From: an uncultured bacterium
GTDB taxonomy: Bacteria > B130-G9
Length of the DNA: 24,606 nt
Assembly (NCBI GenBank): GCA_965372715.1
Contig: CBDVDH010000006.1
Span: 62,001 to 86,606 of the forward strand
Direction: 5' to 3'
Made by a program: the position numbers and the translations under genes. The notes beneath the pieces were generated by a model. The model searched no databases. It had not been told where the DNA came from and saw nothing but the letters and a program-made list of their open reading frames with translations. Below are positions 963-22,402 of this stretch, piece after piece (within the stretch, counting starts at the first letter, position 1; each line of letters starts with the position of its first letter).

Positions 963-1196
963 ATGAAGAGATTGCAGATTCTGGGCGGCGGATGCCCGAA
1001 GTGCAAGAAGCTTGCCGAAAACGCTGAGGCAGCGGCGAAAGAGCTGGGCGTGGAATATGAGATAGAGAAGGTTATAGACATCAACGAGATAATGAGCTTC
1101 GGCGTGATGATGACGCCCGGGTTGGCGGTGGATGGCGAAGTCAAAACCGTCGGGAAAGTCGTCTCTATCGAGGAGATCAAGGCGATTCTCGCCTAA
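963..1196 (+). CDS. Small redox-active disulfide protein (MTH895/Thioredoxin_3-like), copy 1
   Basis: AGGAG at 951-955 then ATG at 963. Protein MKRLQILGGGCPKCKKL...GVMMTPGLAVDGEVK has CxxC and the cis-Pro TP motif. Confidence 0.9.
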   Translation: MKRLQILGGGCPKCKKLAENAEAAAKELGVEYEIEKVIDINEIMSFGVMMTPGLAVDGEVKTVGKVVSIEEIKAILA

Positions 1197-1251
1197 TCGT
1201 CCGAACTTGCTGTTTGAGGCCCAGTGAGGACAATTTCTCAAGGAGGTTGAG

Positions 1252-1731
1252 GTGAAAGGAGGGCAACGAACCGAGAAAACGCGCTCTAGACCGAGTCTAA
1301 TCGTCAAGGTGGGCGTCGTTCTGGTCTTGGTCGCCGCGGTGGCGGGCGCCATCTACTTGAAGGAACGGTCGGGGGCGCCTGAGGCCGATGCGAATGCCGC
1401 GAACGGCTCTGACGCCTCAGCCGCCGATTCACAGAAGGAACAATCCCGAATCGCCCTTCCGCGCCTCGTTGACCTGGGCGCGGGGAAGTGCATCCCGTGC
1501 AAGTTGATGGCGCCGATACTCGAAGAGTTGCGGAAGGAATACAAAGGGAAGTTCGACGTGGTGTTCATCGATGTCTGGAAGGACCGAAGTGCTGGAAAAA
1601 AGTTTAGCGTACGGGTGATCCCGACACAGATATTCTATGACGCCGAGGGGACCGAGCTCTTCCGGCACGAGGGATTCTATTCAAAAGAGGACATCCTTGG
1701 AAAATGGAAGGAACTCGGAATCAATTTATAG
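1252..1731 (+). CDS. Membrane-anchored thioredoxin-family protein
   Basis: AGGAGG RBS before a GTG start, an N-terminal TM helix, and motifs LVDLGAGKCIPCKLM and VIPTQIFYD...HEGF. Confidence 0.85.
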   Translation: MKGGQRTEKTRSRPSLIVKVGVVLVLVAAVAGAIYLKERSGAPEADANAANGSDASAADSQKEQSRIALPRLVDLGAGKCIPCKLMAPILEELRKEYKGKFDVVFIDVWKDRSAGKKFSVRVIPTQIFYDAEGTELFRHEGFYSKEDILGKWKELGINL

Positions 1732-1745
1732 GAAGGAGAATAGAC

Positions 1746-2690: not shown

Positions 2691-2693
2691 AGC

Positions 2694-3392
2694 ATGCAAG
2701 AATTGTTTGCAGCGTTGACGAGGGCCGTAGGGGAAACGCCGGTTGTCGCTGTTCCCGCCTCGTTTGTGTGGGGCGTGCTCAGCATCCTTCTTAGCCCGTG
2801 CCACCTCGCCAGCATCCCGCTAATCGTTGGGTTCATCAATCAGCAGGGAAGAATCTCGACAAGGCGCGCATTTTTCATTTCGACGATTTTTGCCCTGGGC
2901 ATTCTAATCACCATAGGGGCTATTGGGGCGATCACAGGAGCAGCTGGCCGGATGATGGGCGATCTGGGGCGATTTGGCAACTACTTCGTGGCGGTCATTT
3001 TCTTCGCAGTCGGCCTGCATCTGCTGGGTGTCATTCCGATGCCGTGGTCGGGCCCCGGACAAGTCAAGATGAAACGGAAGGGGCCTTTTGGCGCGTTCAT
3101 TCTCGGCCTAGTTTTCGGCGTCGCTCTCGGCCCATGCACGTTCGCTTATATGGCCCCTATGCTGGGCGTCACGTTCAAGTTGGCCTCCACAAACATGCTC
3201 TATGGGGTTCTTCTCCTCCTGATCTATGGCCTGGGCCACTGCTCCGTAATTGTCGTGGCCGGGACCAGCACGGAGGTTGTCCAGCGCTACCTAAACTGGA
3301 ACGAAAGGTCCAAAGGCTCCGCGATCCTCAAGAAGGTGTGCGGCGTTCTAGTGCTGTTTGGTGGGGTCTATCTCATCTATTCCGCTCCGTAG
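2694..3392 (+). CDS. ccdA: Cytochrome c biogenesis CcdA / DsbD-beta family thiol-disulfide transporter
   Basis: About six TM helices with both conserved Pro-Cys motifs, LSPCHLASIP and LGPCTFAYMAP. Confidence 0.85.
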   Translation: MQELFAALTRAVGETPVVAVPASFVWGVLSILLSPCHLASIPLIVGFINQQGRISTRRAFFISTIFALGILITIGAIGAITGAAGRMMGDLGRFGNYFVAVIFFAVGLHLLGVIPMPWSGPGQVKMKRKGPFGAFILGLVFGVALGPCTFAYMAPMLGVTFKLASTNMLYGVLLLLIYGLGHCSVIVVAGTSTEVVQRYLNWNERSKGSAILKKVCGVLVLFGGVYLIYSAP

Positions 3393-3442
3393 GTGGTAAC
3401 GAAAACTGCATAGGCTCTGGAATAACGTAAGGAGAGAAGCTG

Positions 3443-4633
3443 TTGCAGTCCGAAACACGCGTGGTCAAGCATTCTCAAGGGCTGACTTTTTTTGAGAAAT
3501 ACCTAACAGCCTGGATAGTCATGTGCATCGGCGGCGGGATCGCGCTCGGCAAACTCGCCCCGAGCATGGCCACGTTTCTCGACGGCCTTTCTATCTATGT
3601 AGGAGAGGCGCCTGTCGTGTCCATCCCCATCGCTGTTTGCCTCTTCTTCATGATGTATCCCATCATGGTGAAGATTGACTTCGCTGAGGTGCTCAAGGCC
3701 GGCAGGAGCGTCAAGCCAGTCGGTCTTACGCTCGTTATCAACTGGGCGATCAAGCCGTTCACGATGTATGCCATTGCCTTCCTGTTTCTCGGTGTGCTTT
3801 TCAGAGGCCTAATCGGTGCGGAGGCCGTGGATTACGTCAAGATGCCCTTCGGTCTAGACCTAGCCGAGGGCGCGGCCTACGGCGCGGGCAAGGTAGTGGT
3901 GCTTCAGGGCGTGAAGATGCTCCAAGTTCCTCTGTGGCGCAGCTACCTCGCGGGCTGCATCCTCCTCGGAATTGCGCCGTGCACAGCAATGGTTCTCGTC
4001 TGGGGATTCCTGGCGAAGGGCAACGACGGGCACACTCTCATCATGGTGGCGATCAACTCGCTCACGATGCTTCTGCTCTATGGCCCCTTGGGTGGTTTCT
4101 TGCTGGGCGTTGGCAAGCTTCCGGTTCCCTGGCAGGCGCTTCTCTTGTCAATCGGCATCTATGTGGCTCTGCCACTCTTGGCTGGCTACTTCTCGCGAAG
4201 GTGGATCATCGCCGCCAAGGGGCTGGCGTGGTTCAAAGAGAAGTTCCTGCACCTTCTGACTCCAGTTACTATCATCGCCCTTCTTGCGACGCTGCTGCTG
4301 CTGTTCTCGTTCAAAGGCGAAGTGATTCTGTCGAATCCGCTGACGATCCTTTGGATCGCCATCCCGTTATTCATCCAAACGAATCTCATATTCTGGCTCG
4401 GATATGGCCTGTCAAGGCTTCTCAAGCTCTCTTATGAGGACGCCGCGCCCTCCGCGATGATCGGCGCCTCGAATCATTTTGAGGTGGCTATTGCGACGGC
4501 CACGATGCTGTTTGGACTCTCTTCTGGCGCCGCGCTGGCCACGGTCGTTGGGGTGCTCATCGAGGTTCCGGTGATGCTGATGCTGGTCAAGATCTGTCTG
4601 CGCACGAGGCGGTGGTTTGAGCCTGTAATGTAG
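3443..4633 (+). CDS. acr3: ACR3-family arsenite efflux transporter
   Basis: Motifs [53 protein letters not shown] and [19 protein letters not shown] before a TTG start. Confidence 0.95.
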
Positions 4634-4635
4634 TA

Positions 4636-5235
4636 TTGCAGGATGAAAAGAGCCCTGTTCCTAAAATCCGGAGAATCATGCCCAATTCCCAACGTGTGAC
4701 TGTGGTCAAGTTCACACTTTTACTTCTTGCCATTGCGATTGCAGCCTATATGGCGATCAAGACACCGATTCGACCATTGGCGGAAACGGATTCCCCAGTC
4801 GCTCCATCGGCGCCGGAGAACGCCGTAGGCGTGGAACAGAATCCTTCTGCGACAGAGCCTAGACTTGAGCCCAATGGTCAGGATGTCCGCCTGAGATCAG
4901 ACTGCGTTATCGTCTATTATTTTCACACTACAGCTCGCTGCGGCCCTTGCATAAGGATGGAAGAGTGGACCAAAGAGGCCGTCTTGGGTGGTTTCGCGGA
5001 CGCGACGAAGGCCGGGCGGCTGGCATGGCGGGCGATTGACGTCGAGAAATCTGAGAACGACCACTTCATTGACGACTACCGGCTCACAGATATGTCTGTT
5101 GTTGTAGCCGAAATCAAAGGCGGCAAGCGTGTTCGCCACAAGACCCTAGAAGAGTGCTGGTCGCTGCTGGACGACAAAGCTGGCTTCCTAAGGTACGTCC
5201 GTAACCAGGTTCGGCCCTATCTTGCGAGAGGATGA
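4636..5235 (+). CDS. ArsF-like exported CxxC thioredoxin-fold protein, copy 1 (start may be ATG 4678)
   Basis: N-terminal TM/signal, then VIVYYFHTTARCGPCIRME, ENDHFIDDYRL and W...DDKAGFLRYVRNQV. Confidence 0.75.
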   Translation: MQDEKSPVPKIRRIMPNSQRVTVVKFTLLLLAIAIAAYMAIKTPIRPLAETDSPVAPSAPENAVGVEQNPSATEPRLEPNGQDVRLRSDCVIVYYFHTTARCGPCIRMEEWTKEAVLGGFADATKAGRLAWRAIDVEKSENDHFIDDYRLTDMSVVVAEIKGGKRVRHKTLEECWSLLDDKAGFLRYVRNQVRPYLARG

Positions 5236-5779: not shown

Positions 5780-6394
5780 ATGGGTTTTGGGCCGAAGAGA
5801 ATCGCAACATTTGCTCTGTTTTCGTTCATTGTCGCAAGTTTGGCCCATTTAGCCGTCAACAGCCCCAGCAAGCTGGGGCCTTCAGCGCCTGGCGACGCTG
5901 AGGCCGAACGTAGGGGCGTGGTCTCAGACCCGCCCGCTCATACGCCGCATTCCCCGTCCAGGAGAGCCCGGACAGAGCTGGAAACTAGACCAGCGGGCAT
6001 AGTGCCGGAGGGGCCGCGGGGGAATATGAGACAGACAGCGGCGCCTGCCGGACTCGAGGACGGGGTTATCGTCTATTACTTCCACACGACACGACGATGC
6101 TACTCCTGTCGCCTGCTCGAGGCATTGACGAAAGAGGCGATAGAACGAGAATTCAGCGATGCCCTTAGACAACGCTGTCTGGAGTATAGGCCGATCGATA
6201 TCGATCTCGAGGAGAACCAGCACTTCGTAGATGACTACCGCCTCTACACTAAATCGGTCGTCCTGGTCCAATTCAAGGATGTAGCGCAGGTTCGGCATAA
6301 GAATCTACAGAGGGTCTGGACGCTCCTGAGAGACAAACCGGCCGTCCTGAGCTACGTCAGGGAAGAGGTTCGCGCCTATCTGAGTGCGATTTAG
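5780..6394 (+). CDS. ArsF-like exported CxxC thioredoxin-fold protein, copy 2
   Basis: GAGGTG RBS, signal-like N-terminus, VIVYYFHTTRRCYSC and ENQHFVDDYRLYTKSVVL. Paralog of 4636..5235. Confidence 0.75.
   Translation: MGFGPKRIATFALFSFIVASLAHLAVNSPSKLGPSAPGDAEAERRGVVSDPPAHTPHSPSRRARTELETRPAGIVPEGPRGNMRQTAAPAGLEDGVIVYYFHTTRRCYSCRLLEALTKEAIEREFSDALRQRCLEYRPIDIDLEENQHFVDDYRLYTKSVVLVQFKDVAQVRHKNLQRVWTLLRDKPAVLSYVREEVRAYLSAI
5910..5935 (+). repeat. GTAG-type REP-like palindrome inside a CDS
   Basis: GTAGGGGCGTGGTCTCAGACCCGCCC is nearly identical to the intergenic copies at 6677-6702 and 6757-6783 (reverse). Confidence 0.8.
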
Positions 6395-7067: not shown

Positions 7068-7988
7068 ATGATGCCAGCGCAGGAACCGATTAGGGTTGAT
7101 TCTCTTGCGACGGAACCAGGTCACATAAAGGGAGTTAGGCGGGCTACCTGGGTTGGCCTGACCGTCAACATACTGCTATCGGCCCTCAAAATGGCCGGGG
7201 GGGTGCTAGGGTCGAGCCAGGCGATCGTTGCGGACGGTGTTCACAGCCTATCAGACAGTAGCACTGACATCGCCATCCTGATCGGAGTTCGCTTCTGGTC
7301 AAGGCCGCCTGACGAGAGTCACCCCTACGGGCACCGGCGCATCGAGACGCTCGTGACAGCGTTCATCGGGCTGGTACTTCTCGCAGTTGCCGTCGGGCTG
7401 ATCTATAATGCGATCGTCACATTCCAACGACCGCACCCGGAGCGTCCGCACTGGATAGCACTTGTTGCCGCGCTAATCTCGATTGCGAGCAAGGAGACCC
7501 TCTACCGATGGACAGTTACCGTGGGCAAACGCATCAAATCGAGCGCCGTTCTTGCCAATGCGTGGCATCATAGGTCGGACGCCTTCAGCTCGATACCGAC
7601 AGCGATCGCGGTGGCAATCGTGCTTTCGTATCCCTCGCTAGGATTCCTGGACCACCTGGCGGCGGTCGTCGTCTCCTTTTTCATCCTCCGGGTGGCCTGG
7701 AACGTTACGTCACCTGCACTCAAGGAGCTCGTGGACTCCGGCGCCTCCAGAAAGGATTGCGAGCGGATACGATCAATAGCGCTCGCCACGGAGGGCGTTC
7801 AGAGAGTCCATGCTATTCGGACTCGCTACGTTGGTCCGGGACTCTTGGTGGACCTTCACGTGCTCGTTGACCCGAACATCACGGTCGGCCAAGGGCACAA
7901 CATCGGGGGTCAGGTCAAGCAGCGCCTCCTCTCCGAGGGTCCGGACGTCGTTGATGTGATCGCCCATTTAGAGCCGAACGACGAGTAA
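7068..7988 (+). CDS. Cation diffusion facilitator (CDF, FieF-like) metal transporter
   Basis: ADGVHSLSD (TM2 HxxxD), HPYGHRRIE, NAWHHRSD (TM5 HxxxD) and a C-terminal dimerisation domain VDLHVLVD...HLEP. Confidence 0.92.
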   Translation: MMPAQEPIRVDSLATEPGHIKGVRRATWVGLTVNILLSALKMAGGVLGSSQAIVADGVHSLSDSSTDIAILIGVRFWSRPPDESHPYGHRRIETLVTAFIGLVLLAVAVGLIYNAIVTFQRPHPERPHWIALVAALISIASKETLYRWTVTVGKRIKSSAVLANAWHHRSDAFSSIPTAIAVAIVLSYPSLGFLDHLAAVVVSFFILRVAWNVTSPALKELVDSGASRKDCERIRSIALATEGVQRVHAIRTRYVGPGLLVDLHVLVDPNITVGQGHNIGGQVKQRLLSEGPDVVDVIAHLEPNDE

Positions 7989-8203
7989 GAGGGAACCCCT
8001 GTTGTCAGGAGGTGTAGGGTGAGGGCTCCGACACGGCGTAAGACCGCGTGACATCGGGACATGAGCGCAAGCACATGGCATGCCTGTAGCTTGAAATAAT
8101 CGAGCCGTGTGGTACGTTGCGTTCGCCTCGACCACGATGTAAGGTCGGCCACGAGTCGAGAACTACGATGTGCATACAAAGTGCTTTTGGGGGTGTTTGA
8201 ATC

Positions 8204-11200
8204 TTGCTCATAGGCGTTGATGTAGGGTCTGTGGCGGTAAAGGTCGTCCTTATGGGCAGCGACCGCAAGGTGGTTGAGCACCATTACAGGCGGATCAAGG
8301 GACGGCCTCTTCGCACGGTCAGCGACACACTGATAGACATTCTTGGGCGTTATGATCACGCCAAGATCAGGGCTGTTTGTGCAACAGGCGCCGGGGGAAG
8401 GCTCATCGCGGAACTTCTGAACGGCATCTTCGTAAATGAGGTGATTGCTCAATATCTCGCTGGCCTGTTCTTCGACGGGAACGTCAGGACTGTCATCGAC
8501 ATAGGCGGCGAGGAGTCGAAGCTGATGTTGCTTTCTCAGGACATGGCGACTGGCGAGCCCTCAGTTTCGGACTTCGAGATGAACACGGTGTGCGCGGCCG
8601 GGACTGGCTCTTTTTTGGACCAGCAGGCCACGCGCCTCGGCGTGTCCATCGAGGATGAATTCGCGGAGCTGGCCCTGAAGTCCAAGACGCCGCCGCGGGT
8701 AGCCGGTAGATGCAGCGTTTTCGCGAAGACGGACATGATTCACCTTCAGCAGGAGGGCACGCCCGTCTATGATATCGTTGGTGGTCTATGCTACGCGATG
8801 GCTCGAAGCTTCAAGAGCAACGTCGTCAAGGGGTCCAAGATGAGACCGCTGGTCTCGTTTCAGGGTGGCGTCGCGTCGAATCGTGCTATGGTTAAGGCAC
8901 TTAAGCAGGTTCTTGGACTGAACGATGGCCAAATGCTCGTCCACGAGCTCCACGGCGTTGCAGGCGCTATCGGCGCGTGTCTGCATTATCTTGGGTCAAA
9001 AAACGTGCCGGAGCAGTATTTCGAGGGGCTGTCGAAGCTCGACGAGTTCCTCCTGAGACCCTCGGCGGAGGAAAAGCATCTGCCGATGCTGTCGCTTGAA
9101 AACGTCGTGCTGCCGGGCGATGCACACGTGCGGCGGGCCGAGATGCCCAAGTCAGCCCGACCCCTAAAGGTCTATCTCGGGATAGATGTCGGCTCCATCA
9201 GCACAAATGTCGTTGCCATTGATGAGGACCTTAACCTCCTGGCGAAGTGCTATCTCATGACGGCGGGTCGGCCGATCGACGCGGTCGCTAGGGGGCTTTC
9301 CGAAGTAGGCGAGGAATTGGCTCGCAGCGTCAAGGTCGCTGGCGTCGGGACGACAGGCTCGGGTCGGTACATGACGGGTGAGGTGGTCGGCGCTGACACA
9401 GTGAGGAACGAGATCACGGCGCAGGCTACGGCCGCGGCTGTGATAGACCCCGATGTCGATACGATCTTCGAGATAGGTGGCCAGGACTCGAAATACATCG
9501 GCCTCGAAAACGGCGTAGTTGTAGATTTTGAGATGAATAAGGTCTGCGCAGCTGGGACGGGCTCTTTTCTCGAGGAGCAGGCGGAGAAGCTTGGCGTTAG
9601 CATTAAGAGGGAGTTTGCGGACGAGGCGCTGGGCTCAAGGACGCCGGTCAGGCTGGGCGAGCGCTGTACGGTGTTCATGGAATCCAGCGTGACCCACTTC
9701 CAGCAGGAGGGCGCGAAACGAGAGAACCTTCTCGCCGGGCTGGCATACTCGATCGTTTACAACTACCTCAATCGGGTTGTGGGGACGAAGAAGGTCGGCA
9801 ATAACATCTTCTTCCAAGGGGGCGTGGCTTTTAACCGCTCGGTCTGTGCGGCGTTCAGCGCGGTTACCGGCAAAAGGATCACCGTTCCCCCGAATCACGA
9901 GGTGACAGGCGCCATTGGCGCAGCTATGCTGGCCAAGGATGCGATGAAGGGACGCGGCGCCAGCAAGTTCAAGGGCTTCGACTTGAAGGACCGGAAATGG
10001 GAGCTTAGGACTTTCGAATGCCACGACTGCGCGAATGTCTGCGAGATCCGACAGGTCACAATGGAGGGTGAGCCTCCCATATACTACGGCTCACGGTGCG
10101 AGAAGTATGACGTGCGTAAGAAGGCCGCAACACACTCGCGCCGAATACCTGATCTCTTCGCCGAGCGCGAGGAGCTTCTGATGCGCTGGCATTCAAAGCC
10201 TGCTGAGCGCGCCTCGAGCAGCGGGATGACGATCGGGATACCGAGGGCTCTTCTGTTCTTCGAGCTTTATCCCATGTGGTCCGCCTTCTTTGGGGCGCTA
10301 GGCTTCGAGACCGTCCTTTCGGCAAAGACGAACAAGCATGTTATCCACGAGGGGGTTGAGGCGGTCAAGGCTGAGATGTGCTTCCCGGTTAAGGTTATGC
10401 ACGGGCACGTGCTCGATCTCCTGAAGAAGGGCGTTGACAGAGTCTTTCTGCCCAGCGTGATCAACATGCCCATAGAGACGAAGGGGTTCGTCAATTACTA
10501 CAACTGCCCGCTGGTTCAGTCGATCCCATACACGATCAGATGCGGCGTCGATGGCTTGGAGCGGGAACGTATCCTGAGCCCAATTCTCTATCTCCAGCGA
10601 GGCAAGAAGGACACCGTAAACCGGCTGGCAAAGTTCGCTCACGAGGACCTCGGAGTCTCGCGGTCGGACGCGAGAAGGGCGGCTGAGGCGGCTATGACCG
10701 CCCAGCAGGAGTTCACAACGCGTCAAATTGAGCTCGTCAGCAGAGCGGAACAGGTTATCAGGGAATATGGCAGAGCCGTTGTGATAATCGGTCGCCCCTA
10801 CAACACCAGCGACGCGTTCGTGAATCTCAATCTGCCGAAGAAGCTTCGGGAACTCGATGTCCTTGCTGTGCCAATGGACCTCATACGACCTGACGTTTCG
10901 CTAACGCTGAAGGAACACAGTAACATGTATTGGCGTTACGGGCAGAGGATTCTGGGCACGGCGGTGTCCATAGCCAAGGACCCCCGGCTCTACGGCCTTT
11001 ATATCACCAATTTCGGCTGCGGCCCGGATTCTTTTATCGCCAGGTTCTTCTCCGAGATTATGGGCGAGAAGCCATTTCTTCAGATCGAGATCGATGAGCA
11101 CAGCGCAGACGTCGGGGCAATCACTAGGTGTGAGGCGTTTCTGGACAGCATTGAGGGCAAGAAGCACAGAGCTGAGGTTGAGCCCCGGCTGGTCGAGAAC

Positions 11201-12445
11201 CGCGCCAGCGAGAGGACGCGAGGAATCAAGGACAAGACCCTTTACGTTCCCAGCATGAGCGATCACGTGTATCCTTTCTGCGCGGCGCTGAAGCGCTTTG
11301 GCTTCAACGCGGAGGTTATCCCAGAGGCGGACGAGGAGAGCCTTGAGCTTGGACGTCGTTACACGAGTGGCAGGGAATGTTTCCCATGCATCGTGACGAC
11401 TGGGGACATGGTCAAGCTCTGCCAGAGCGATGGTTTCGACCGCGACAAGGCGATGTTTATGATGCCGACGACCTCTGGCCCTTGTAGGTTCGGGCAGTAC
11501 AACCACGCTCAGCGCATGGTACTGGAGACCATAGGCTTCCCGGACGTCCCCATACTCGCGCCCGACCAGGACAGAACCGGCGATTTCCACGGGACGCTCA
11601 AGGACGTTCCGTTGAGGTTCTACTTTCACGGATACCGGGGTATGGTCTCCGTCGATTACATTGAGAGGCTAGCACGGCGCATCAGGCCCTATGAGAAGGT
11701 CCCCGGCCGAGCCGACGAGGTTTACAGTTATTGCCTGAAGGAGATAACCCGCGCCACACGGGAAGGTGACGTCCTGAGCGTGTTGCCGAAGTGTTCCGCT
11801 CTTTTTGCTAGAATTGAGCGAGTTAAAACGCAGCTGAGGCCCAGAATCGGCGTCGTGGGGGAGATATACGTCAGGTCGCATAGGTTCAGCAACCAGAACA
11901 TAGTCAAGCGGCTTGAGGCGCTGGGCGCTGAGGTCTGGATGCCGCCGTTCGCTGAGTGGACCTATTATCTTACGTTTATCCACGCCCGGGATGCGGCCAG
12001 TATGGGCAAGTGGTGGCGCTTCACCAAGCTGCGCGCGCTCTATCTCTTGCAGCGACTCGGAGAGCGAACCATTCGAGAGGCAATCGGTGATTCGACCGGC
12101 CTATATCACGACGAACCAGTTGCACACGCAATCCACGCCGCCTCGCCTTATCTTGACGCCTCGTTCCACGGTGAGAGCATCTTGTCAATTGGGAAGATGG
12201 TCGAGTTCATTGAGAATGGCGCAACTGGAGTGATAAACCTCATGCCATTCGGATGCCTGCCGGGGACAGTCGTGACCTCCATGCTGAAGAAGCTGCACGA
12301 AGACTTTGATGGGATACCCGCGCTCTCGATCAACTACGATGGCCTTGAGGACCCGGCCGAGCAAACCCGCCTCGAGGCGTTCGTGCACCAAGCCAAACAG
12401 CGCGCTGAACGAATGCAGGCGCGCGGCGAGAAGCCTCGATACTAA
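8204..12445 (+). CDS. Fused acyl-CoA dehydratase activase (2x BadF/BadG/BcrA/BcrD) + DUF2229 + dehydratase/reductase domain Fe-S protein; PlsA/Ger-like
   Basis: Two ASKHA ATPase domains (GVDVGS...DIGGEESK...CAAGTGSFL...RCSVF and GIDVGS...EIGGQDSK...CAAGTGSFL...RCTVF), then CHDCANVC, CFPVK, YNCP, GRPYN, FGCGPD, ECFPC, GPCRFGQY, GEIYVR and MPFGCLPG. Confidence 0.9.
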   Translation: MLIGVDVGSVAVKVVLMGSDRKVVEHHYRRIKGRPLRTVSDTLIDILGRYDHAKIRAVCATGAGGRLIAELLNGIFVNEVIAQYLAGLFFDGNVRTVIDIGGEESKLMLLSQDMATGEPSVSDFEMNTVCAAGTGSFLDQQATRLGVSIEDEFAELALKSKTPPRVAGRCSVFAKTDMIHLQQEGTPVYDIVGGLCYAMARSFKSNVVKGSKMRPLVSFQGGVASNRAMVKALKQVLGLNDGQMLVHELHGVAGAIGACLHYLGSKNVPEQYFEGLSKLDEFLLRPSAEEKHLPMLSLENVVLPGDAHVRRAEMPKSARPLKVYLGIDVGSISTNVVAIDEDLNLLAKCYLMTAGRPIDAVARGLSEVGEELARSVKVAGVGTTGSGRYMTGEVVGADTVRNEITAQATAAAVIDPDVDTIFEIGGQDSKYIGLENGVVVDFEMNKVCAAGTGSFLEEQAEKLGVSIKREFADEALGSRTPVRLGERCTVFMESSVTHFQQEGAKRENLLAGLAYSIVYNYLNRVVGTKKVGNNIFFQGGVAFNRSVCAAFSAVTGKRITVPPNHEVTGAIGAAMLAKDAMKGRGASKFKGFDLKDRKWELRTFECHDCANVCEIRQVTMEGEPPIYYGSRCEKYDVRKKAATHSRRIPDLFAEREELLMRWHSKPAERASSSGMTIGIPRALLFFELYPMWSAFFGALGFETVLSAKTNKHVIHEGVEAVKAEMCFPVKVMHGHVLDLLKKGVDRVFLPSVINMPIETKGFVNYYNCPLVQSIPYTIRCGVDGLERERILSPILYLQRGKKDTVNRLAKFAHEDLGVSRSDARRAAEAAMTAQQEFTTRQIELVSRAEQVIREYGRAVVIIGRPYNTSDAFVNLNLPKKLRELDVLAVPMDLIRPDVSLTLKEHSNMYWRYGQRILGTAVSIAKDPRLYGLYITNFGCGPDSFIARFFSEIMGEKPFLQIEIDEHSADVGAITRCEAFLDSIEGKKHRAEVEPRLVENRASERTRGIKDKTLYVPSMSDHVYPFCAALKRFGFNAEVIPEADEESLELGRRYTSGRECFPCIVTTGDMVKLCQSDGFDRDKAMFMMPTTSGPCRFGQYNHAQRMVLETIGFPDVPILAPDQDRTGDFHGTLKDVPLRFYFHGYRGMVSVDYIERLARRIRPYEKVPGRADEVYSYCLKEITRATREGDVLSVLPKCSALFARIERVKTQLRPRIGVVGEIYVRSHRFSNQNIVKRLEALGAEVWMPPFAEWTYYLTFIHARDAASMGKWWRFTKLRALYLLQRLGERTIREAIGDSTGLYHDEPVAHAIHAASPYLDASFHGESILSIGKMVEFIENGATGVINLMPFGCLPGTVVTSMLKKLHEDFDGIPALSINYDGLEDPAEQTRLEAFVHQAKQRAERMQARGEKPRY

Positions 12446-14655
12446 TGGCGCGTCCCTCTGGGCCCAGGACAGCCCCACTCTGCCTCTGGGCGGTCATACT
12501 TGGGGCGATCCTTCTGGCGCCGCATCTCCGGCCGATCGCGCTGCTTTTGCTACCAGGACTTCTCATCCACGCGATACCGGGCATCACGATTAAGGGGCCC
12601 ATATCTGCTCTCGCCAAAACGATCGCGAGCTCAATATCATTCTGGATAGTCGCCGTGTGGGGCGCGTCGTGGATGGGGCTCCATCTCTCGACCCTCTTCT
12701 GGGTGGTTTGCCCGGTTTCTGCCCTGCTGTGGCTGACTCTTGTTGCTCGGAGGACCATATCGCCGGCTATCTTCCCAACGACACCCGTGCGGCTCGTTGT
12801 GCTTGCGTCAGCCTTGGCCCTGACGATGTCGCCGTTCTTCCTCACGGTCGCCCCGCCCGGGGCCGACATGAGCATGCATGGGTATATCACTCGAATGGTG
12901 TATGAAGCTGGTGGGGTCCCGGACACCTATCAGCCTTACCTTCCGATCGAGGACTTCGGGCCGTTCTCAATCGGCTTTCACACGCTCGCGGCCCTGACTA
13001 CGTCGGTGTCGGGTGGGGTGCTGCCTATCTACCGAGCCGTCCTTCTCGTGGACTGCCTCGTCTATTTCCTCTTCTTCCTCTTTGTGTGGGCCATGCTCAG
13101 ACCGCGTTTCAGCGCCCACGTCGCGATGGTCGTGGCGGCGATGGCTCTGTTCCTGTCGAGGAACCCACAGCATTTCTTTGCGTGGGGTGGGACCCCAACC
13201 GTGCTCTCGATTGCGCTCATCGCTTGCGCTATGCCGGCGCTCCGCCGCCCTAAGAACCTCAGCCTGGGCGAGGCGTTCTTCGCGGCCCTCTGCCTCTCTT
13301 CGGCATTCCTCACACATCCGATGCCAGCACTCATCCTCGCTACGGTCTATGTCCCATACGCGGCATACCTGGTGTTTGCGGCAACTAGGCAGGCCGTTCT
13401 CTCGAAGCTCCTACTGCGCCTCCTCGTGATAGCGCTCGTCTGCCTCACGTTCATTTCGTTCTTCCTCGTCAGATTTGAGAACAGGCTCTCCGATGACGAG
13501 CAGGAGTGGATGCAAGTGTGGGGGTCTATCACATCAGAGCGTTGGCATGGGACGGTCCTCGATGCGCCGTTCACCCTCACTCGGCATCTGGCTCAATACG
13601 CCCTGGGCCCCCTTGCTCTGCCGCTGGCCTTTGCGCTGCTTCTTGCGATTTGGTCCCGTGCTATGGATGAGAGAATGGACCTCTATTTCGTGCTTGCGAT
13701 TGTCGGTATCGTCATCAACGCTCGGTATCAGCTCCTCCCGCATTCTGTGTTCCTCCTGCCCGACAGAGCAGCCGCGATGCTGCCAGTTTTTGCGGCGCCG
13801 CTGATCGGCGCCTTGCTATCGAAGGCACAAGATGCGGTGGCAGCGATTATTCCTCAAAACCGTGTGAGGCAGCTCGGCATCGTCATTGGTGTCGCGCTTG
13901 CATGCGCCTGTGCGTCAGGCAGCTATGCCTATTACATCAGGCCCAGCCTGGCAGAGGTGCCGGTAACGCCGGATGATCTCCGCGCCCTTGACTGGATTGA
14001 GAAGCACACCGACCCCGATGCGCACATCGCCAACAATTACTCCGACGCTGGCCTATGGATACCCACGATGACGCGGCGAAGCGTCGCTGTCCCACACGTC
14101 AACATAATCAACTGGTCGGAGACGAAGCTCGTGCTCGCCTCCAGACCCGCTCAATTCATCTACGTCGGCGCCAGGTCCGTCTATCCCTTCCCGTTTGAGT
14201 GGACCCCGGCGGGTGTTGAGGCTCTGCGACCCACGCCACGGCTGGTCTTTCAGAGCGGCCAGGCCAGGCTTTACGAGCTTGACCCCTCGCTTGCGCGCTC
14301 TATCTCGACCAACTTCGAGCGGCTTGTAGTAGGCAAGGGTGAGATTGTTGGTGAGATCGAGCTCCTGCGGCCTGCTCAGGCCGAGACCCTCGCGACACCA
14401 CGCGTGGTCCTTCAGTGGGACCCGTCCGGGTGCGACCTTTTCAACGTTCAGCTCTCGCTGTCGCCTAACTTCGATAACCCCTTGCCAATCTACAACTCCT
14501 ACCCCGCCGTCCAAATCGCTTCCGGCTCCTATGACATCACGCCCCTACGCCCGCTCCTGTCGGCAAACACACCGATATACTGGCGAATCAGAGGTCTCCC
14601 AGCGGAGGGCAGCGATCTCTTCGAGTCCCCCATCCGCCACTTCATTCGGGGATGA
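12445..14655 (+). CDS. Polytopic membrane protein, putative GT-C glycosyltransferase (DUF6541-like) with C-terminal FN3/Ig-like domain
   Basis: Many TM helices, a first-loop PGADMSMH, WGGTPT, DDLRALDWI...IANNYSDAGLWIP, and a C-terminal LLRPAQ...LQW...VQLS...F...IYWRIRG. The start overlaps the upstream stop (TAATG). Confidence 0.6.
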   Translation: MARPSGPRTAPLCLWAVILGAILLAPHLRPIALLLLPGLLIHAIPGITIKGPISALAKTIASSISFWIVAVWGASWMGLHLSTLFWVVCPVSALLWLTLVARRTISPAIFPTTPVRLVVLASALALTMSPFFLTVAPPGADMSMHGYITRMVYEAGGVPDTYQPYLPIEDFGPFSIGFHTLAALTTSVSGGVLPIYRAVLLVDCLVYFLFFLFVWAMLRPRFSAHVAMVVAAMALFLSRNPQHFFAWGGTPTVLSIALIACAMPALRRPKNLSLGEAFFAALCLSSAFLTHPMPALILATVYVPYAAYLVFAATRQAVLSKLLLRLLVIALVCLTFISFFLVRFENRLSDDEQEWMQVWGSITSERWHGTVLDAPFTLTRHLAQYALGPLALPLAFALLLAIWSRAMDERMDLYFVLAIVGIVINARYQLLPHSVFLLPDRAAAMLPVFAAPLIGALLSKAQDAVAAIIPQNRVRQLGIVIGVALACACASGSYAYYIRPSLAEVPVTPDDLRALDWIEKHTDPDAHIANNYSDAGLWIPTMTRRSVAVPHVNIINWSETKLVLASRPAQFIYVGARSVYPFPFEWTPAGVEALRPTPRLVFQSGQARLYELDPSLARSISTNFERLVVGKGEIVGEIELLRPAQAETLATPRVVLQWDPSGCDLFNVQLSLSPNFDNPLPIYNSYPAVQIASGSYDITPLRPLLSANTPIYWRIRGLPAEGSDLFESPIRHFIRG

Positions 14656-14697
14656 TGGCGACCCGAAAGATGAGTTTGACCCAGGCGGCTGTGGCCT

Positions 14698-14877
14698 TCT
14701 GGACTGCGTCCGCCGCGCGGCGGATTTCATTGGTGGTGGCCAGGCGCCACCATCTCATGGATTGCCTTTTTGATCTTTCAGACAGTGATCTTTCGATCTT
14801 GAAGCCAATCGATGTAGGGTCGATGCCGCGTCAAGCCGCGCTGAACCAAAGCGGCGTCGAGCCACCGCACTCCATAG
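14698..14877. repeat. REP-like palindromic elements (GGAGTGCG/GGACTGCG class)
   Basis: TGGACTGCG runs directly into the perfect 16-bp palindrome TCCGCCGCGCGGCGGA (14709-14724). An inverted CCAAAGCGGCGTCGAGCCACCGCACTCCA lies at 14846-14874. Confidence 0.5.
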
Positions 14878-15221
14878 TCATCCAACGGCTGCAACTCACA
14901 GACCGACTCCTGTCGAGCTCATAGCCTCTGGGCAGTGGGAAAGCGTGTTCATCCCACCTTGTCCCTCGCCGTCAATCTGATTTCTTGGGACGAGTGATCG
15001 TCTTTGTGTTCTTAGAGTCCTTGTGTTTGAATGAGGGAAATGAATTATGAACACACTTGACGCGATGGGGCGCAATAGGGAAACTGACTGCAGCAAAGTT
15101 CCACGGCGGACAAGCTGAAGACACAGAAGAAGTCTCGATGATTCCATGTAGATTCGCCGGGGTGAGACGCAGTATAGTTGTCCGCAGATTGACCGAACTT
15201 TGAACTGACGCGAGGCGCGAG

Positions 15222-16862
15222 ATGAAGATCGACTTGACAAAGAACACACTCTGCTATGGCGACAACCTTGAGGTGTTGAGGTTGCATGTGCCGGACCAGT
15301 GTGTTGATCTTATCTATCTCGATCCGCCGTTCAAGAGCAACCAGGATTACAACGTCCTGTTCGCCGAGGCGAATGGCTCGAAGTCCAGGGCTCAGATCAA
15401 GGCCTTCACTGACACTTGGCGCTGGGACCAGGGCGCGGAGGAGGCTTATCTCGAGGTCGTCGAGGCGGGCGGCAAGGTCTCCGATGCGATGCAGGCTTTC
15501 CGCAAGCTTCTCGGCGAGAACGATATGATGGCTTACCTCGCAATGATGGCGCCGCGCCTCGTCGAACTGCGCCGCGTCCTGAAGGCGAGCGGCAGCATGT
15601 ATCTGCATTGCGACCCCACGGCTAGCGCTCACCTGAGGCTCTTGATGGATGCTGTGTTCGGACCGGAGAACTTCAAGGGCGAGATTATATGGAAATGCAC
15701 CAGCGCCCATAGCAACGCTAGAAGACTTGGCAAGATCCATCAGACGCTTCTGTTCTACGCCAAGTCTGACGCCTTTCTCTGGAATCCGGTTTACATGCCG
15801 TATGATGCAGAGTACATCGAGAAATACTACCGGTATATTGATGAGGATGGCCGCCGATTCATGTCCGACAATCTGGTCGGACATAAGGGTGTCAACCCGG
15901 AATATGAGTGGCGCGGAATCACGAGGCCCTGGAGGTATCCCAAGAAGAGGCTTGATGAACTTGATGCGGCAGGACGGATATTTTGGACTCGCAACAACTT
16001 CCCGAGGTTCAAGCGCTATTTGGACGACATGCCGGGCGTGCCGCTTCAGAGCATTTGGACAGATATTCTCCACGTTGTGTCGTGGTCAAAAGAAGGGCTG
16101 GGCTATCCGACGCAGAAGCCGGAGGCGCTACTAGAGCGCATCATCAAAGCCAGCTCGAACGAGGGGGACTTGGTGCTCGACCCGTTCTGTGGCTGTGGGA
16201 CCGCGGTATCTGTCGCCCAAAGACTGAACCGCCGCTGGATCGGGATCGACATAACATATCTCGCGACGAACCTGATCAAATCTCGACTTCGCGATGCGTT
16301 CGGTGAGGGCGTGCTGTATGAGCTTGTCGGTGAGCCAAGAGACCTCGCTAGCGCCCGACAGCTCGCCAAACAAGACCCCTATCAGTTCCAGTGGTGGGTG
16401 CTAGGTCTTGTCGAGGCGCGCGGGGTAGAGCAGAAAAAAGGCGCCGACAAGGGCATCGACGGGCGTATCTTATTCCACGAAGACCTTAAGGGCCGCGTGA
16501 CCAAGCAGATCATCTTCTCAGTAAAGGCGGGCAAGACTGGCGTCGCGCACGTTCGCGATCTTCGAGGCGTCATCGAGCGGGAGAACGCGGCGATTGGCGT
16601 TTTGATCTCAATGCAGGAACCGACGAGGGACATGCGGAAGGAGGCCGCAGCTGCCGGCCTCTACGAATCGTCATTCTGGGGCAGGCGCTATCCCCGGCTC
16701 CAGTTGATCACCGCCAGCGAACTCCTCGAGGGCAAGCGCATCGACGCCCCACCCAGGTTCGCCAACCTTACCCTGAGGCGCGCTCCCAAAGCGGAGAGGC
16801 CGATGCAAAAGATGACGAAACTTAACTTCGCGGCGGACGACAACCGAGGAGAGACAGAATGA
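15222..16862 (+). CDS. Beta-class N4/N6 DNA methyltransferase fused to a C-terminal Mrr-like restriction-endonuclease-fold domain
   Basis: Motif IV DLIYLDPPF precedes YPTQKPEALLERII and motif I LDPFCGCGT (beta order). The C-terminus has DPYQFQWW...GADKGIDG...IIFSVKAG...VRDLRGV. Confidence 0.88.
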   Translation: MKIDLTKNTLCYGDNLEVLRLHVPDQCVDLIYLDPPFKSNQDYNVLFAEANGSKSRAQIKAFTDTWRWDQGAEEAYLEVVEAGGKVSDAMQAFRKLLGENDMMAYLAMMAPRLVELRRVLKASGSMYLHCDPTASAHLRLLMDAVFGPENFKGEIIWKCTSAHSNARRLGKIHQTLLFYAKSDAFLWNPVYMPYDAEYIEKYYRYIDEDGRRFMSDNLVGHKGVNPEYEWRGITRPWRYPKKRLDELDAAGRIFWTRNNFPRFKRYLDDMPGVPLQSIWTDILHVVSWSKEGLGYPTQKPEALLERIIKASSNEGDLVLDPFCGCGTAVSVAQRLNRRWIGIDITYLATNLIKSRLRDAFGEGVLYELVGEPRDLASARQLAKQDPYQFQWWVLGLVEARGVEQKKGADKGIDGRILFHEDLKGRVTKQIIFSVKAGKTGVAHVRDLRGVIERENAAIGVLISMQEPTRDMRKEAAAAGLYESSFWGRRYPRLQLITASELLEGKRIDAPPRFANLTLRRAPKAERPMQKMTKLNFAADDNRGETE

Positions 16863-17500
16863 AGTGCCCATATTGTGGTGATGCGATCTTTTCGCGGCAC
16901 ATACATTCCGTGCCTATGACTAATTTGGGGCCCGACGAAAACGGACGTGAAATGAGAGATTATCGGCTTTATGTCGATGCCTGTCCCGCGTGCGACCGAC
17001 AGATCATACAGCTCTTTGCTAACTTCGACGATTCAGTTAAGAAACACATCATCTGGCCCAAGCGAATATATCGCGAATCATGTCCCACAGAGGTCCCCAA
17101 GGATATCGCTGCGGATTACAACGAGGCGTGCGATGTCATCGACATCAGCCCCACGGCGGCAGCCGCTCTCGCGAGGCGTTGCATGCAATACATATTGGAA
17201 CGAGATGCAGGCGCCCGCAAGGGCGAAAAACTCTGGAAGCAGGTCGAGGCCGTGGTGAACGATCCGAATACGCCTGAATATGTCAAGGGCAACCTACACG
17301 ATCTCCGTGAGATAGGGAACTTCTCTGCCCATGCGAACGAAGATGTGACCGGCCAAGTTCTGCGGGCCGAGCCTGAGGAAGCGGAGTGGACGCTAGAGAC
17401 ACTCAGGACGCTGTTCGAGCATTACTATGTGGGGCCGGCGAACTCCAAGGCGCGAAAGGCGGCCCTCAAGGACAAACTGGCAAAGAAGGCGAAGAAATAG
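16859..17500 (+). CDS. DUF4145 (HEPN-like) domain protein with N-terminal Zn-ribbon
   Basis: CPYC...CPAC, then VPKDIAADYNEA...SPTAAAALARRCMQ...LREIGNFSAH. ATGA overlap with the methyltransferase stop. Confidence 0.8.
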   Translation: MKCPYCGDAIFSRHIHSVPMTNLGPDENGREMRDYRLYVDACPACDRQIIQLFANFDDSVKKHIIWPKRIYRESCPTEVPKDIAADYNEACDVIDISPTAAAALARRCMQYILERDAGARKGEKLWKQVEAVVNDPNTPEYVKGNLHDLREIGNFSAHANEDVTGQVLRAEPEEAEWTLETLRTLFEHYYVGPANSKARKAALKDKLAKKAKK

Positions 17501-20005: not shown

Positions 20006-22402
20006 TTAATCCGCTATCGGGCCGATCGGGCTGGTCCCTGAGCCGGGGCCTCGCTTGAAGCAAAAGCCAAAGCAATCAACGCCTGACATCGAAGGGGACA
20101 TTCGACCTGTATCGACACGGACCTTGATCGCGGTGGTTGCCAAACGCCGAAACGAGTATTCATACACACCCGCGAATCTCTCTCCGTAAAGCGCATTTCT
20201 GTATTCGTGAAGCATGGACTCAACCATAATCTGAACCTCCTCGAAAGCGCCGGCCGGGTTCTGCACAGACACGGCCGGGACGGGGATATGGCCTTCTATC
20301 GGGTGGCGAAAATCGAGGAAAATGCCATCGACAATGGTCGGCTGAACGAATGTGATCAGTATCTCGTTATCGTCAACGCGCTTGACTTCTGCCCGACCAG
20401 AAGGCCTCACGTCACCGAATGGTCCTGCCCACCTCGCGTCGCCGTGCCCAAACGAGGCCTCAAAGACAAGCGTGCGACTCTCAAGCAAAGGTCCGATGGT
20501 CTCGTTCTTTCTCGACGGCTCAGTTTGCAGAACCCAGCAATCATCAAAGTGCCTGACCACGCTCAGCGTCGAGCGCTGCTCGTTCGCGGGCAGGGGGCCG
20601 TAGCCCTCAATGGGCGGCCCGTCCAGCTCATCCAGATGCAAGAGTAGATATTTGACACCGATCTCATTCAGAAGCTCCCCCGGCCACTTGGATATGTCCC
20701 GGCCAGAAAAGGCCCTCTTGACAACCGCATTCTCCGGCGGGAAATAGCGGCTGTACCCGTTCACGATCTTCTTGTTGTGGAACAGCGCATAGTACTGGTA
20801 TATCGCCTCCTGCCAAATAGACGGAACATCCAGGATCACAAACTCCTCGTCTTGCTGAGCAAGCCATTTATAGCAGGCTGGCATATTGGCTCTGGTGAGG
20901 GCTGGCTGATGTGCCAGAGGCAGCTCTGGCAAGACCGTCAAAAGCGCAAAGGCAACGACCGCTACCCGGAAGACATTTGTGGTCTTGGGCAGCGACTTGT
21001 CAGCCAAGAAAGTCTCAATCCTCTTGACCGCAAAGGCCAGCAGCATCCAAAAAGCAAAGGTGAAAAGGAACCAGAACCTCACGGGGGCCCTGATGGCCCC
21101 GAATGGTGGGACTGCACGGGCCAGCAACGCGAAAGGCCCTTGTCCATAGCAGCGCCCTGCCAGAGTAATAGTGTCCCCAAATGCCAGGAAATACGCCGCA
21201 AAAGCTATCACAAGATAAAGCGCCTCCTCATCGGAGAGGCGCTGCATGAACCTGCCGGCCTTAAGCTTGCGAACCGACATTGCCGTGAGCCCGGTCAGCA
21301 GAAAGGCGCAAACCGGATAAGCGAGGGAGAGAGGAGCAGATTGAGCGCGAAAGACTCGAATGTCGAAATGATTAATGACGAAGCCCGCCAGCATAATCGC
21401 GAGCGAGACGCGATTTGCCGCGACAACCAACCATAGCAATCGAGGGCGGCCCCGCTCTTGTCTCTCTGAACCGACATCAGCCGCGCGAGAGCGCCACCAA
21501 AGCAGCAGCCAACCGGCCACAAGAAGGCCAACGCACACCGGGCCTGGAAATGGGAGACTCAGCCTTGCTATCATGCCCGGCGGCTGCCTATGCTGCAGAA
21601 GTCTATCGAGCAGCCTGAAGTAGGGCAGTATCGGCCAGATTACTAGCGCACCAAATATCAAGACAAACAAGGGGGATGCGAAATACTTGGAAATCGAAAC
21701 GTGGGCAGTTGTTCTTGAGCGGCCAGTCCCTTGTACCGCCCCGTCGGCGCGATCCTGCCAATACTGGGAAAGCGTCATGAAAAGAAAAATTAGAAAAACA
21801 GCAAAAGAAAAGATCAGGCCAAGATATACGCAGCTTAGCGTCTGGATAGCATAAAACACTGCCGCCAAGATGATATATCGCGCCCGTGGGGTCCGCCAGT
21901 GCTTGTGAAGACAGATCATCGTAAGTGGCAACCAGTAGGTCGTGACAGTCTGAAGCGCATGCATGCTGTGCATCATATAGACCCAGAACGCGTTGAATAT
22001 GCCGGCAACGACGGCAGCCGTTGTCGAGCCAGTGAGATACTTGGCCAACAGGTAGGTAAGAAGGCCGGTCAAAAAGAAACTCAGAAGCAGCGCGAAGTTA
22101 TGCCCCGCGATTGGATTCTCGGTCAGTGCAGTCACAGGCCAGCTGATGATGGCGATTGGAAGTATCGTTTCGGAATAGGCAAGTACCTCTTTCCTGGGAT
22201 AGAAATAGTGTCCCTCATAGAGCTCTGACCACTCGCCGTTGGCGATATGTTCCTGTATCCGATACATGGTCGAGGCGTTCAGCAGGCAGTCAATATGCTC
22301 GGGAACGACCCCACCGGGGGACGTCGAAAACGGCTGGAGGAAATACAACGTGCAGCCAAGAAACAAGAGTATTACGAGGGCGGGCCTAAGAAACCGTCTC
22401 AT
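20006..22402 (-). CDS. Large polytopic membrane protein, putative GT-C/YfhO-like glycosyltransferase
   Basis: D...N...FYPRKEVLAYSE, LLSFFLTGLLTYLLAKYLTGS...AGIF, IRAPVRF, YKWLAQQ...ILDVP...H.KKIVNGYSRYFPP and GVKYLLLH. The start is reassigned to ATG 22402 (GGAG RBS, MRRFLRPALVILL) because the upstream 32 codons overlay a pyrE relic. Confidence 0.7.
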   Translation of the reverse strand: MRRFLRPALVILLFLGCTLYFLQPFSTSPGGVVPEHIDCLLNASTMYRIQEHIANGEWSELYEGHYFYPRKEVLAYSETILPIAIISWPVTALTENPIAGHNFALLLSFFLTGLLTYLLAKYLTGSTTAAVVAGIFNAFWVYMMHSMHALQTVTTYWLPLTMICLHKHWRTPRARYIILAAVFYAIQTLSCVYLGLIFSFAVFLIFLFMTLSQYWQDRADGAVQGTGRSRTTAHVSISKYFASPLFVLIFGALVIWPILPYFRLLDRLLQHRQPPGMIARLSLPFPGPVCVGLLVAGWLLLWWRSRAADVGSERQERGRPRLLWLVVAANRVSLAIMLAGFVINHFDIRVFRAQSAPLSLAYPVCAFLLTGLTAMSVRKLKAGRFMQRLSDEEALYLVIAFAAYFLAFGDTITLAGRCYGQGPFALLARAVPPFGAIRAPVRFWFLFTFAFWMLLAFAVKRIETFLADKSLPKTTNVFRVAVVAFALLTVLPELPLAHQPALTRANMPACYKWLAQQDEEFVILDVPSIWQEAIYQYYALFHNKKIVNGYSRYFPPENAVVKRAFSGRDISKWPGELLNEIGVKYLLLHLDELDGPPIEGYGPLPANEQRSTLSVVRHFDDCWVLQTEPSRKNETIGPLLESRTLVFEASFGHGDARWAGPFGDVRPSGRAEVKRVDDNEILITFVQPTIVDGIFLDFRHPIEGHIPVPAVSVQNPAGAFEEVQIMVESMLHEYRNALYGERFAGVYEYSFRRLATTAIKVRVDTGRMSPSMSGVDCFGFCFKRGPGSGTSPIGPIAD

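Follow-up and report, generated by a model that had tools for sequence, protein, structure and literature searches.

Does an operon that joins a putative ester-to-ether lipid reductase to a membrane glycosyltransferase act on one shared lipid, or are two envelope genes simply expressed together? The question is raised by a stretch of 24,606 nucleotides (referred to here as the window; positions 62,001 to 86,606 of contig CBDVDH010000006.1 in assembly GCA_965372715.1, or G000:C6:62001-86606) from an uncultured bacterium whose assembly comprises 3.56 Mb in 112 contigs and is 95.9% complete. On its forward strand gene 1 (8204..12445) encodes P0001, a single-polypeptide homologue, 1413 residues long, of the ATP-driven iron-sulfur ester reductases of the PlsA-PlsR/Ger type. 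Gene 2 (12445..14655, same strand) starts with an ATG and encodes P0002, a 736-residue membrane glycosyltransferase of the DUF6541 family with the GT-C fold. The closest protein relatives of both carry the label 'Candidatus Coatesbacteria bacterium'. With homologues numbering from hundreds to thousands, both are real genes and far from being reading frames that arose by chance. By sequence comparison the identities of the two genes and their conservation as a co-transcribed operon are well supported. On balance we lean towards a co-expressed envelope-remodelling unit, a two-gene operon specific to Coatesbacteria whose products need not share a substrate.

Gene 1 opens with the TTG at 8204, which is the first possible start because an in-frame TGA lies just ahead of it at 8198-8200. 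The start is preceded by a G-rich GGGGTG (8190-8195), and alignment of homologues shows the invariant ATPase motif GxDxGS beginning at residue 4. Pfam finds BcrAD_BadFG (PF01869) in two stretches of P0001 with an E-value of 2.3e-71, the best spanning residues 325-577, followed by DUF2229 (PF09989; 2.5e-64, 217 bits) at residues 676-893 and by HGD-D (PF06050) at residues 1337-1394, the last scoring 31.1 bits against a cut-off of 28.4. NCBIfam gives the acyl-CoA dehydratase activase TIGR00241, also in two stretches (3e-83). When the C-terminal 520 residues were scanned alone a weak second DUF2229 fragment (~1023-1077) and two HGD-D stretches were seen. The first activase ATPase domain (~residues 3-261; 8210..8986, + strand as for all the features of the two genes) is delimited by the NCBIfam benz_CoA_red_D and bzdQ stretches and by the first PF01869 stretch, and the second (residues 325-577; 9176..9934) by the best PF01869 stretch and by PDB entry 1hux. 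The DUF2229 domain lies at 10229..10882 and the rest of the C-terminal catalytic half, with the DUF2229-like fragment and the HGD-D-like end, at 10883..12442. The solved sequence relatives of P0001 are activators and ATPase subunits only: the HgdC activator (1hux) matches residues 325-580 with an E-value of 2.3e-31, this entry and the 2-hydroxyisocaproyl-CoA dehydratase activator (4eht) both match residues 325-582, and MbdP (of MbdQ/MbdP, 9gai) matches residues 3-241. No membrane segment was found in P0001 by hydropathy.

Across 18 homologues with 48-79% identity the invariant cysteines of P0001 are Cys130, Cys170, Cys196, Cys448, Cys488, Cys606, Cys609, Cys613, Cys632, Cys726, Cys768, Cys939, Cys1059, Cys1094 and Cys1351. 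Cys130 and Cys170 in the first ATPase domain occupy places that match those of Cys448 and Cys488 in the second. Both pairs are presumably equivalent to the cluster ligands of HgdC, a protein whose dimers jointly hold one [4Fe-4S] cluster; by this analogy the matching pairs would be the expected pattern if the tandem domains of P0001 were to share a single [4Fe-4S] cluster. Cys606, Cys609, Cys613 and Cys632 form a Cys-x2-Cys-x3-Cys...Cys motif (10019..10099) that is likely, judging from its conservation, to provide the ligands of a metal or iron-sulfur site located where the activase half borders on the catalytic half. The last four invariant cysteines, from Cys939 on, lie in the catalytic half.

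The original prediction had described a single protein of 1413 residues with two activase domains, DUF2229 and a dehydratase/reductase domain, and had matched it to PlsA and Ger; Pfam and NCBIfam agree on the first point, and the second is borne out by the domain order, two PF01869 domains, PF09989 and HGD-D/DUF2229 fragments, which is that of Ger and of single-gene PlsA. Ger is described as having two PF01869 activation domains and one PF09989 reduction domain, with small D and H domains coming after them (Sahonero-Canavesi et al. 2022, PMC13159169), and the same build is given for single-gene PlsA in the available parts of two further reports (PMC12838417, PMC8788747). As with P0001, the Ger proteins of Thermotoga maritima (Tmari_0479/AGL49404) and Desulfatibacillum alkenivorans (SHJ90043) are single polypeptides of ~1400 residues with two PF01869 domains, PF09989 and short DUF2229/HGD-D fragments, the host of P0001 being a probable anaerobe; in contrast to P0001, no GT-C partner is described for Ger in what is available of that source (PMC13159169) and none was found among the ORFs scanned downstream at 83 homologous loci. 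The single-gene PlsA of Enterococcus faecalis (Q835P9), Lactococcus cremoris and Bifidobacterium longum is, according to the accessible part of its source, encoded by 4,248-4,920 bp (PMC12838417), as against 4,242 bp for gene 1. The PlsA/PlsR of Clostridium perfringens (CPE1194-1195, Q8XL48/Q8XL47) has the same domain set as P0001 but is split into two genes. The ATP-driven iron-sulfur ester reduction carried out by PlsA is oxygen-sensitive, and the PlsA enzymes that have been tested come from Bacillota and Actinomycetota, unlike P0001. By its domain build gene 1 is therefore a well-supported member of the PlsA-PlsR/Ger family and, taken by itself, a new member of a known and widespread family. 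Haem-copper oxidase (COX1) was not found in the source genome, at its 95.9% completeness, which is compatible with, and no proof of, the likely anaerobic life of the Coatesbacteria host.

A search with the DUF2229 family, for which T. maritima and L. lactis served as control genomes and gave matches, returned gene 1 as the sole DUF2229 gene in the source genome. A stand-alone activase on another contig (G000:C53), which shares 44% identity with ATPase domain 2, was considered as a second ether-lipid system and rejected; its neighbour is a sodium:solute symporter, and a DUF2229 partner is absent.

Gene 2 matches the Pfam family DUF6541 (PF20176) over residues 32-566 with 57 bits against a cut-off of 29, and has no match in NCBIfam. 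Hydropathy places ~13-15 membrane segments in the part of P0002 that extends to residue 495. An AlphaFold2 model built from an 18-sequence alignment had a mean predicted local distance difference test (pLDDT) score of 85.5 and a predicted template modelling (pTM) score of 0.87. When the model was compared with the PDB using Foldseek there were 27 matches with E<=1e-3, and among the matches listed all were GT-C enzymes, including AglB, STT3, AftA, ArnT, ALG12, DPY19 and PglB. VIA-align gave the highest Z score for yeast STT3 (26.8; 459 residues, root-mean-square deviation (rmsd) 4.9), followed by AftA (24.4), ArnT (22.6) and PglB (21.1), with 436-477 residues aligned for these four, and by PMT4 and AftD with Z ~20. 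The membrane fold of the model is the same as that of the solved GT-C enzymes (STT3/AglB/PglB, ArnT, AftA/AftD, EmbA-C, PMT and ALG12) over ~440-480 residues with Z 20-27, and in both the last helix is followed by a soluble domain; the conserved aspartate of P0002 also appears to sit, as in these enzymes, in the loop behind the first core helix. The sequence identity, on the other hand, is only 9-13%, and P0002 has ~100 residues with three helices at its N-terminus that are extra, since the GT-C alignments begin at model residues 100-110 or ~50. P0002 also lacks the WWDYG-type acceptor motif. From the model it is clear that gene 2 encodes a GT-C-fold protein, belonging to the small and uncharacterised DUF6541 family. 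A full-text search found the name DUF6541 in none of the papers covered, and the ESM Atlas clusters for P0002 are labelled only 'hypothetical protein' and DUF6541.

A conserved region of P0002 lies just after the helix formed by residues 114-133, which aligns with the start of STT3. Here the motif APPGADMSMHxY (residues 135-147; 12847..12885), with the invariant Asp141, is found in an acidic loop (residues 136-187) with five Asp or Glu residues against one Lys or Arg. In the 18-sequence alignment, which reaches down to 23% identity, Pro137, Gly139, Asp141, Ser143, Met144, His145, Tyr147, His291 and Arg441 are among the residues that do not vary. The position of Asp141 is presumably that at which GT-C enzymes carry their catalytic aspartate. 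After the last membrane helix the model contains a mixed alpha/beta domain (~residues 506-630; 13960..14334) with conserved NNYSDAGLWIP and PHVN motifs, and the alignments with STT3, PglB and ArnT cover it up to ~residue 613. The protein ends with a beta-sandwich of the FN3/immunoglobulin-like type (residues 631-736; 14335..14652). No Pfam family matches this tail at E<=0.01; structurally, VIA-align superposes it on a rhamnosidase domain with Z 10.6 (rmsd 2.7, 103 residues) and on pectate lyase and other FN3-type domains with Z 8.4-8.9, and Foldseek also finds FN3 domains, with weaker E-values and target-normalised TM scores of 0.5-0.67. The original prediction had called P0002 a polytopic GT-C-like protein of 736 residues with an FN3-like tail, and the structure searches uphold this for both the membrane part (STT3, Z 26.8) and the tail (Z 8-10.6).

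The two genes meet in a TAATG (12443..12447), where the TAA of gene 1 (12443-12445) and the ATG of gene 2 (12445-12447) share one A, just as had been noted from the sequence. The same T(A/G)ATG junction occurs in three genera, and in a fourth the stop is followed by five nucleotides and then ATG; in 10/10 sequences, including the window, the junction measures 0-5 nt. P0002 has matches in seven of 41 genomes, these being all seven of one family (f1, with the source genome included) and none of the 34 others. The question of whether the adjacency might be unique to the source genome, on which the original prediction had made its case depend, is answered by the six other Coatesbacteria genomes, all of which keep the pair. 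In five of these (G001, G002, G003, G004 and G006) a distance of 0-40 nt separates the end of the P0001 orthologue from the point where the alignment with the P0002 orthologue starts, and in the sixth (G005) both genes are on one contig fragment (L010). The P0001 orthologues are 74-96% identical in 5/5 relatives, and those of P0002 57-90%. The pair is also present on all three metagenome contigs that reach upstream of gene 2 (L038, L039 and L041); two others begin inside it. A scan for promoters and terminators across 7800-15400 of the window returned three promoter-like sites where 2.5 were expected and eight terminator-like sites where 5.8 were expected, and gave nothing usable.

The genes on either side of the pair are unrelated in function. 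G002 has the upstream genes of the window, and G001 the downstream ones without the methylase-Mrr/DUF4145 insert. In G004 (L018), where P0002 is 57% identical, nothing in the flanks beyond the pair matches the window: Schlafen/AlbA_2, TilS and thymidylate kinase genes lie upstream and a gene for a beta-helix protein downstream. Because these flanks are entirely different, the pair must have been moved or retained as a unit at least once. No operon of this type was found in the papers searched on plsA, glycosyltransferase and ether lipid gene clusters, on DUF6541 or on Coatesbacteria, which agrees with the earlier impression that the pairing had not been described.

To place P0002 within its family, 1.84 billion representative sequences were scanned with HMMER, giving 453 relatives at E<=1e-3. 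The orthologue group is present as one representative (68% identity, 1147 bits; a single cluster at 50% identity), and the next match drops to 237 bits and 29% identity. Scans of genomes and metagenome contigs yielded 61 loci of the family, of which 10 are orthologues (57-90% identity) and 51 distant or paralogous (24-44%). In a quick maximum-likelihood tree of 55 rows, from which nine short or duplicate rows had been dropped beforehand, the orthologues form one clade (100 in the Shimodaira-Hasegawa-like approximate likelihood ratio test (SH-aLRT), stem length 1.05), the paralogues form a second one, and the deeper branch order is unresolved; three of the 10 rows labelled as Ger-linked (L040, L042 and P0013, the last a deeper relative with 51% identity) carry that label by presumption, as their upstream DNA is absent. 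Relatives from Woesearchaeota and Desulfovibrionaceae also match Pfam DUF6541, and many relatives fall below the Pfam threshold. The Coatesbacteria clade differs from the rest of DUF6541 in its extra FN3-like tail and its Ger-like neighbour. Among the loci examined the tail is confined to the orthologue clade, and it occurs once in the source genome. A distant DUF6541 relative, P0207 (742 residues), carries a tail homologous to that of P0002 (28% identity over residues 507-723), so the tail is older than the Coatesbacteria clade.

The source genome has a second DUF6541 gene (C4:65902-67842; L037), counted among the 51. This paralogue is ~710-720 residues long, with an insert in the middle of the protein and no FN3 tail, and an orthologous locus is found at L029:2721-8719. 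It adjoins an 'aerotolerance'-type operon of BatA/VWA, TPR and BatD genes and, in the source genome, also a PMT_2 gene. The neighbours of the distant relatives, such as GT2 with GtrA and PMT_2 (L020), PMT_2 (L026) and GT4 genes with PIG-L (L028), are by their annotation typical of polyprenol-dependent glycosylation. At two loci of the Patescibacteria group (L027:9228-12321 and L031:9060-12229) the last part of a BacA/UppP undecaprenyl-diphosphatase gene overlaps with the DUF6541-like gene, after which comes a PAP2 phosphatase gene; on sequence grounds this is a compact context of polyprenol recycling. No homologue of P0001 was found at any of the 51 distant or paralogous loci, within flanks of up to 8-10 kb that were often shorter. 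Of 12 genomes with a distant GT-C relative one has a Ger-like gene, on another contig of a Desulfovibrionaceae metagenome-assembled genome, compared with a background of 126 in 394.

The converse search started from gene 1. Residues 640-1413 of P0001 gave 4802 matches at E<=1e-10 among 8000 candidates scored, the best of those from outside Coatesbacteria being ~45% identical, and this C-terminal half matched 133 of 401 diverse genomes (seven from Coatesbacteria and 394 from other bacterial families) at E<=1e-30. At 83 Ger-like loci from outside Coatesbacteria the downstream side was examined. For 23 of them the flanks were 1.5 kb, and in 19 of these an open reading frame (ORF) of at least 90 residues was scanned; for the other 60 the flanks were 2.6 kb, and in 48 a same-strand ORF starting within 500 nt was scanned. 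None of the scanned ORFs matched a GT-C family of Pfam, and neither tblastn with P0002 nor a hidden Markov model of its family found a match in the 83 flanks. In the data searched the pairing is specific to Coatesbacteria. Enzymes of membrane lipids account for six of the 48 ORFs directly downstream, namely PlsB-type glycerol-3-phosphate acyltransferases (L120 and L125), a Tam41-type cytidylyltransferase (L121), a phosphatidylserine decarboxylase (L163) and the apolipoprotein N-acyltransferase Lnt (L134 and L136), and because of these neighbours a role in lipid metabolism is suggested for the Ger-like family at large. Twenty of the 48 have no Pfam match, and the other neighbours are miscellaneous, SecA, NAD kinase, CarA, HemC and MoaC among them.

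It would seem plausible that the two proteins work as follows. In P0001 the two HgdC-type ATPase domains would share one [4Fe-4S] cluster, and ATP would power the transfer of a low-potential electron to the DUF2229/HGD-D-like catalytic half, which under anoxia would reduce the sn-1 acyl ester of a glycerolipid to an alkyl or alk-1-enyl ether at the cytoplasmic face of the membrane; this substrate and product are suggested by analogy with the characterised relatives. P0002, translated from the overlapping start, would take a sugar from a polyprenyl-phosphate carrier and attach it to an acceptor at the outer face of the inner membrane, with Asp141 in the first outer loop as the likely catalytic residue and the alpha/beta and FN3-like domains probably holding an acceptor that bears a glycan. 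The fold and conservation of P0002 are observed in the model and the alignments, and its donor and acceptor are inferred. Given that LpxC is encoded in the genome, the Coatesbacteria cell probably has an outer membrane with lipopolysaccharide.

Whether P0002 acts directly on the product of gene 1, by putting a sugar onto the ether glycerolipid or by extending a lipoglycan anchored in it, so that an ether-anchored glycoconjugate results, is the point at which the evidence divides. Some GT-C enzymes, such as the mycobacterial PimE, Emb and Aft, do build glycans on lipid anchors. The stop/start coupling is kept across four genera and the pair is retained with different flanks; the Ger-linked clade sits on a long stem (SH-aLRT 100, length 1.05), which, like the fall from 1147 to 237 bits, would be expected after a change of function; and the tail of this clade is of the type seen in carbohydrate-active enzymes. 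Besides tight adjacency in a single clade, it is this distinct, long-branched GT-C subfamily with a tail of its own that speaks for a shared substrate. Against it, the two sites of action would be on opposite faces of the membrane, no GT-C or DUF6541 gene is among the ORFs scanned downstream of the Ger-like genes of other families, the one Ger-like gene in the 12 genomes with a distant DUF6541 relative is on a different contig, and the characterised PlsA and Ger are, in the available parts of the two reports, active alone in E. coli (PMC13159169, PMC12838417). The original prediction, that P0002 could glycosylate the ether lipids or rely on them as anchors or carriers, is on this point not sustained beyond the adjacency of the two genes, and outside Coatesbacteria the two families are independent of each other (0/83, 0/51 and 1/12). 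We regard such a direct coupling as unlikely, and its most specific version, in which the operon builds a glycoconjugate on an ether glycerolipid, gene 1 hardening the anchor against hydrolysis and the FN3-bearing GT-C adding or extending sugars at the outer face, as slightly less likely again. Several further observations weigh against the favoured reading, the co-expressed unit with its proposed ether-lipid and sugar-transfer activities. The Ger-like family is very large and few of its members have been tested, and homologues of Ger also occur in strains without detected ether lipids, according to the accessible part of the report (PMC13159169). The conservation of the pair may in part be inherited synteny, since all the genomes that bear it belong to one family-level clade. 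With 31 PMT_2 matches and two DUF6541 genes in the source genome a GT-C neighbour is less surprising; at about one gene per kb, by our own estimate, ~1% of its genes would have a GT-C gene next downstream. The profile of the P0002 family gave only chance-level matches to PDB sequences (E 0.15-1.3), none of them GT-C, and the likely catalytic role of Asp141 is read from its position in the model alone.

An alternative is that gene 1 does not act on lipids at all and is an ATP-driven iron-sulfur reductase or dehydratase for some other ester or CoA-type substrate, with the GT-C gene merely co-transcribed. Its domains are indeed common to the activators of 2-hydroxyacyl-CoA dehydratases and to benzoyl-CoA reductases, most of the Ger-like family is untested and most of the downstream neighbours elsewhere are of the miscellaneous kind; yet the fused ATPase-ATPase-DUF2229-HGD-D build of ~1400 residues yields ether lipids in every tested case covered by the available parts of the two reports (PMC13159169, PMC12838417), the window holds no separate dehydratase or CoA-transferase partner, and membrane-lipid genes recur beside the homologues, which makes this reading improbable. 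It is also conceivable that P0002 docks the soluble reductase at the membrane or presents lipids to it, the transferase activity of P0002 being secondary or lost. The overlapping stop and start would favour equimolar synthesis, and P0001, which has no membrane segment, needs some way of gaining access to the lipids of the membrane. The conserved residues of P0002 (Asp141, His145, Arg441 and His551 among others) fit a working enzyme and are located in outer loops, however, its extra domains are on the side of the membrane away from P0001, and no partner of this sort accompanies the P0001 homologues of other lineages (0/83 loci), and we consider a physical complex of this kind very improbable.

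If the co-expressed unit amounts to co-transcription only, gene 1 is simply a further member of a widespread family, next to one of the many GT-C genes of its genome. If instead the glycoconjugate reading is true, P0002 would provide the first link between a GT-C enzyme, or any member of DUF6541, and the biosynthesis of bacterial ether lipids, and in sediments the pair would serve as a genetic marker of ether-anchored glycolipids. Environmental and palaeoclimate studies use bacterial ether lipids as markers, and these lipids hold a central place in the debate on the 'lipid divide', and almost nothing is known of their fate after the ester-to-ether step. An operon linking that step with a membrane glycosyltransferase would give the orphan DUF6541 family of GT-C proteins its first functional lead, and the uncultured Coatesbacteria would join the candidate producers of ether lipids in salt-marsh, seep and soda-lake sediments.

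The set of GT-C glycosyltransferases in the source genome is unusually large for 3.56 Mb. The PMT_2 (ArnT/PMT-type GT-C) profile matches, 30 of the 31 over the cut-off, include C35:33907-34368, C31:22759-23154 and C4:64610-64939, and come in addition to the two DUF6541 genes; no protein with a GtrA domain was found in the genome.

The upstream flank of the window begins with a cluster at 2-4633, largely conserved in G002, that encodes an ArsP-type permease, two thioredoxin-like proteins, DsbD_TM and an SBF-family transporter and may be an arsenic or redox-stress module. It is followed by genes for two hypothetical proteins of 199 and 204 residues (4636-5235 and 5780-6394), paralogues of one another without a Pfam match, each of which matches both copies in G002, and by a cation-efflux gene (7068-7988) upstream of gene 1. 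A short ORF at 14652-14924 (90 residues) that overlaps the stop of gene 2 was rejected as a gene, having no Pfam match and no tblastn match in six related loci. Beyond it the other strand carries cdd, UPF0014 and phosphoribosyltransferase genes, and also on that strand are an ORF of 830 residues at 20006-22498, 93% identical in G001, and one of at least 377 residues at 23473-24606, neither with a Pfam match. Between gene 2 and cdd lies a fusion of a DNA methylase with an Mrr-type restriction domain, together with a DUF4145 gene (15222-17500); this block is missing in G001 (L015), which is of the same genus, and in G003 (L016) the methylase gene follows gene 2.

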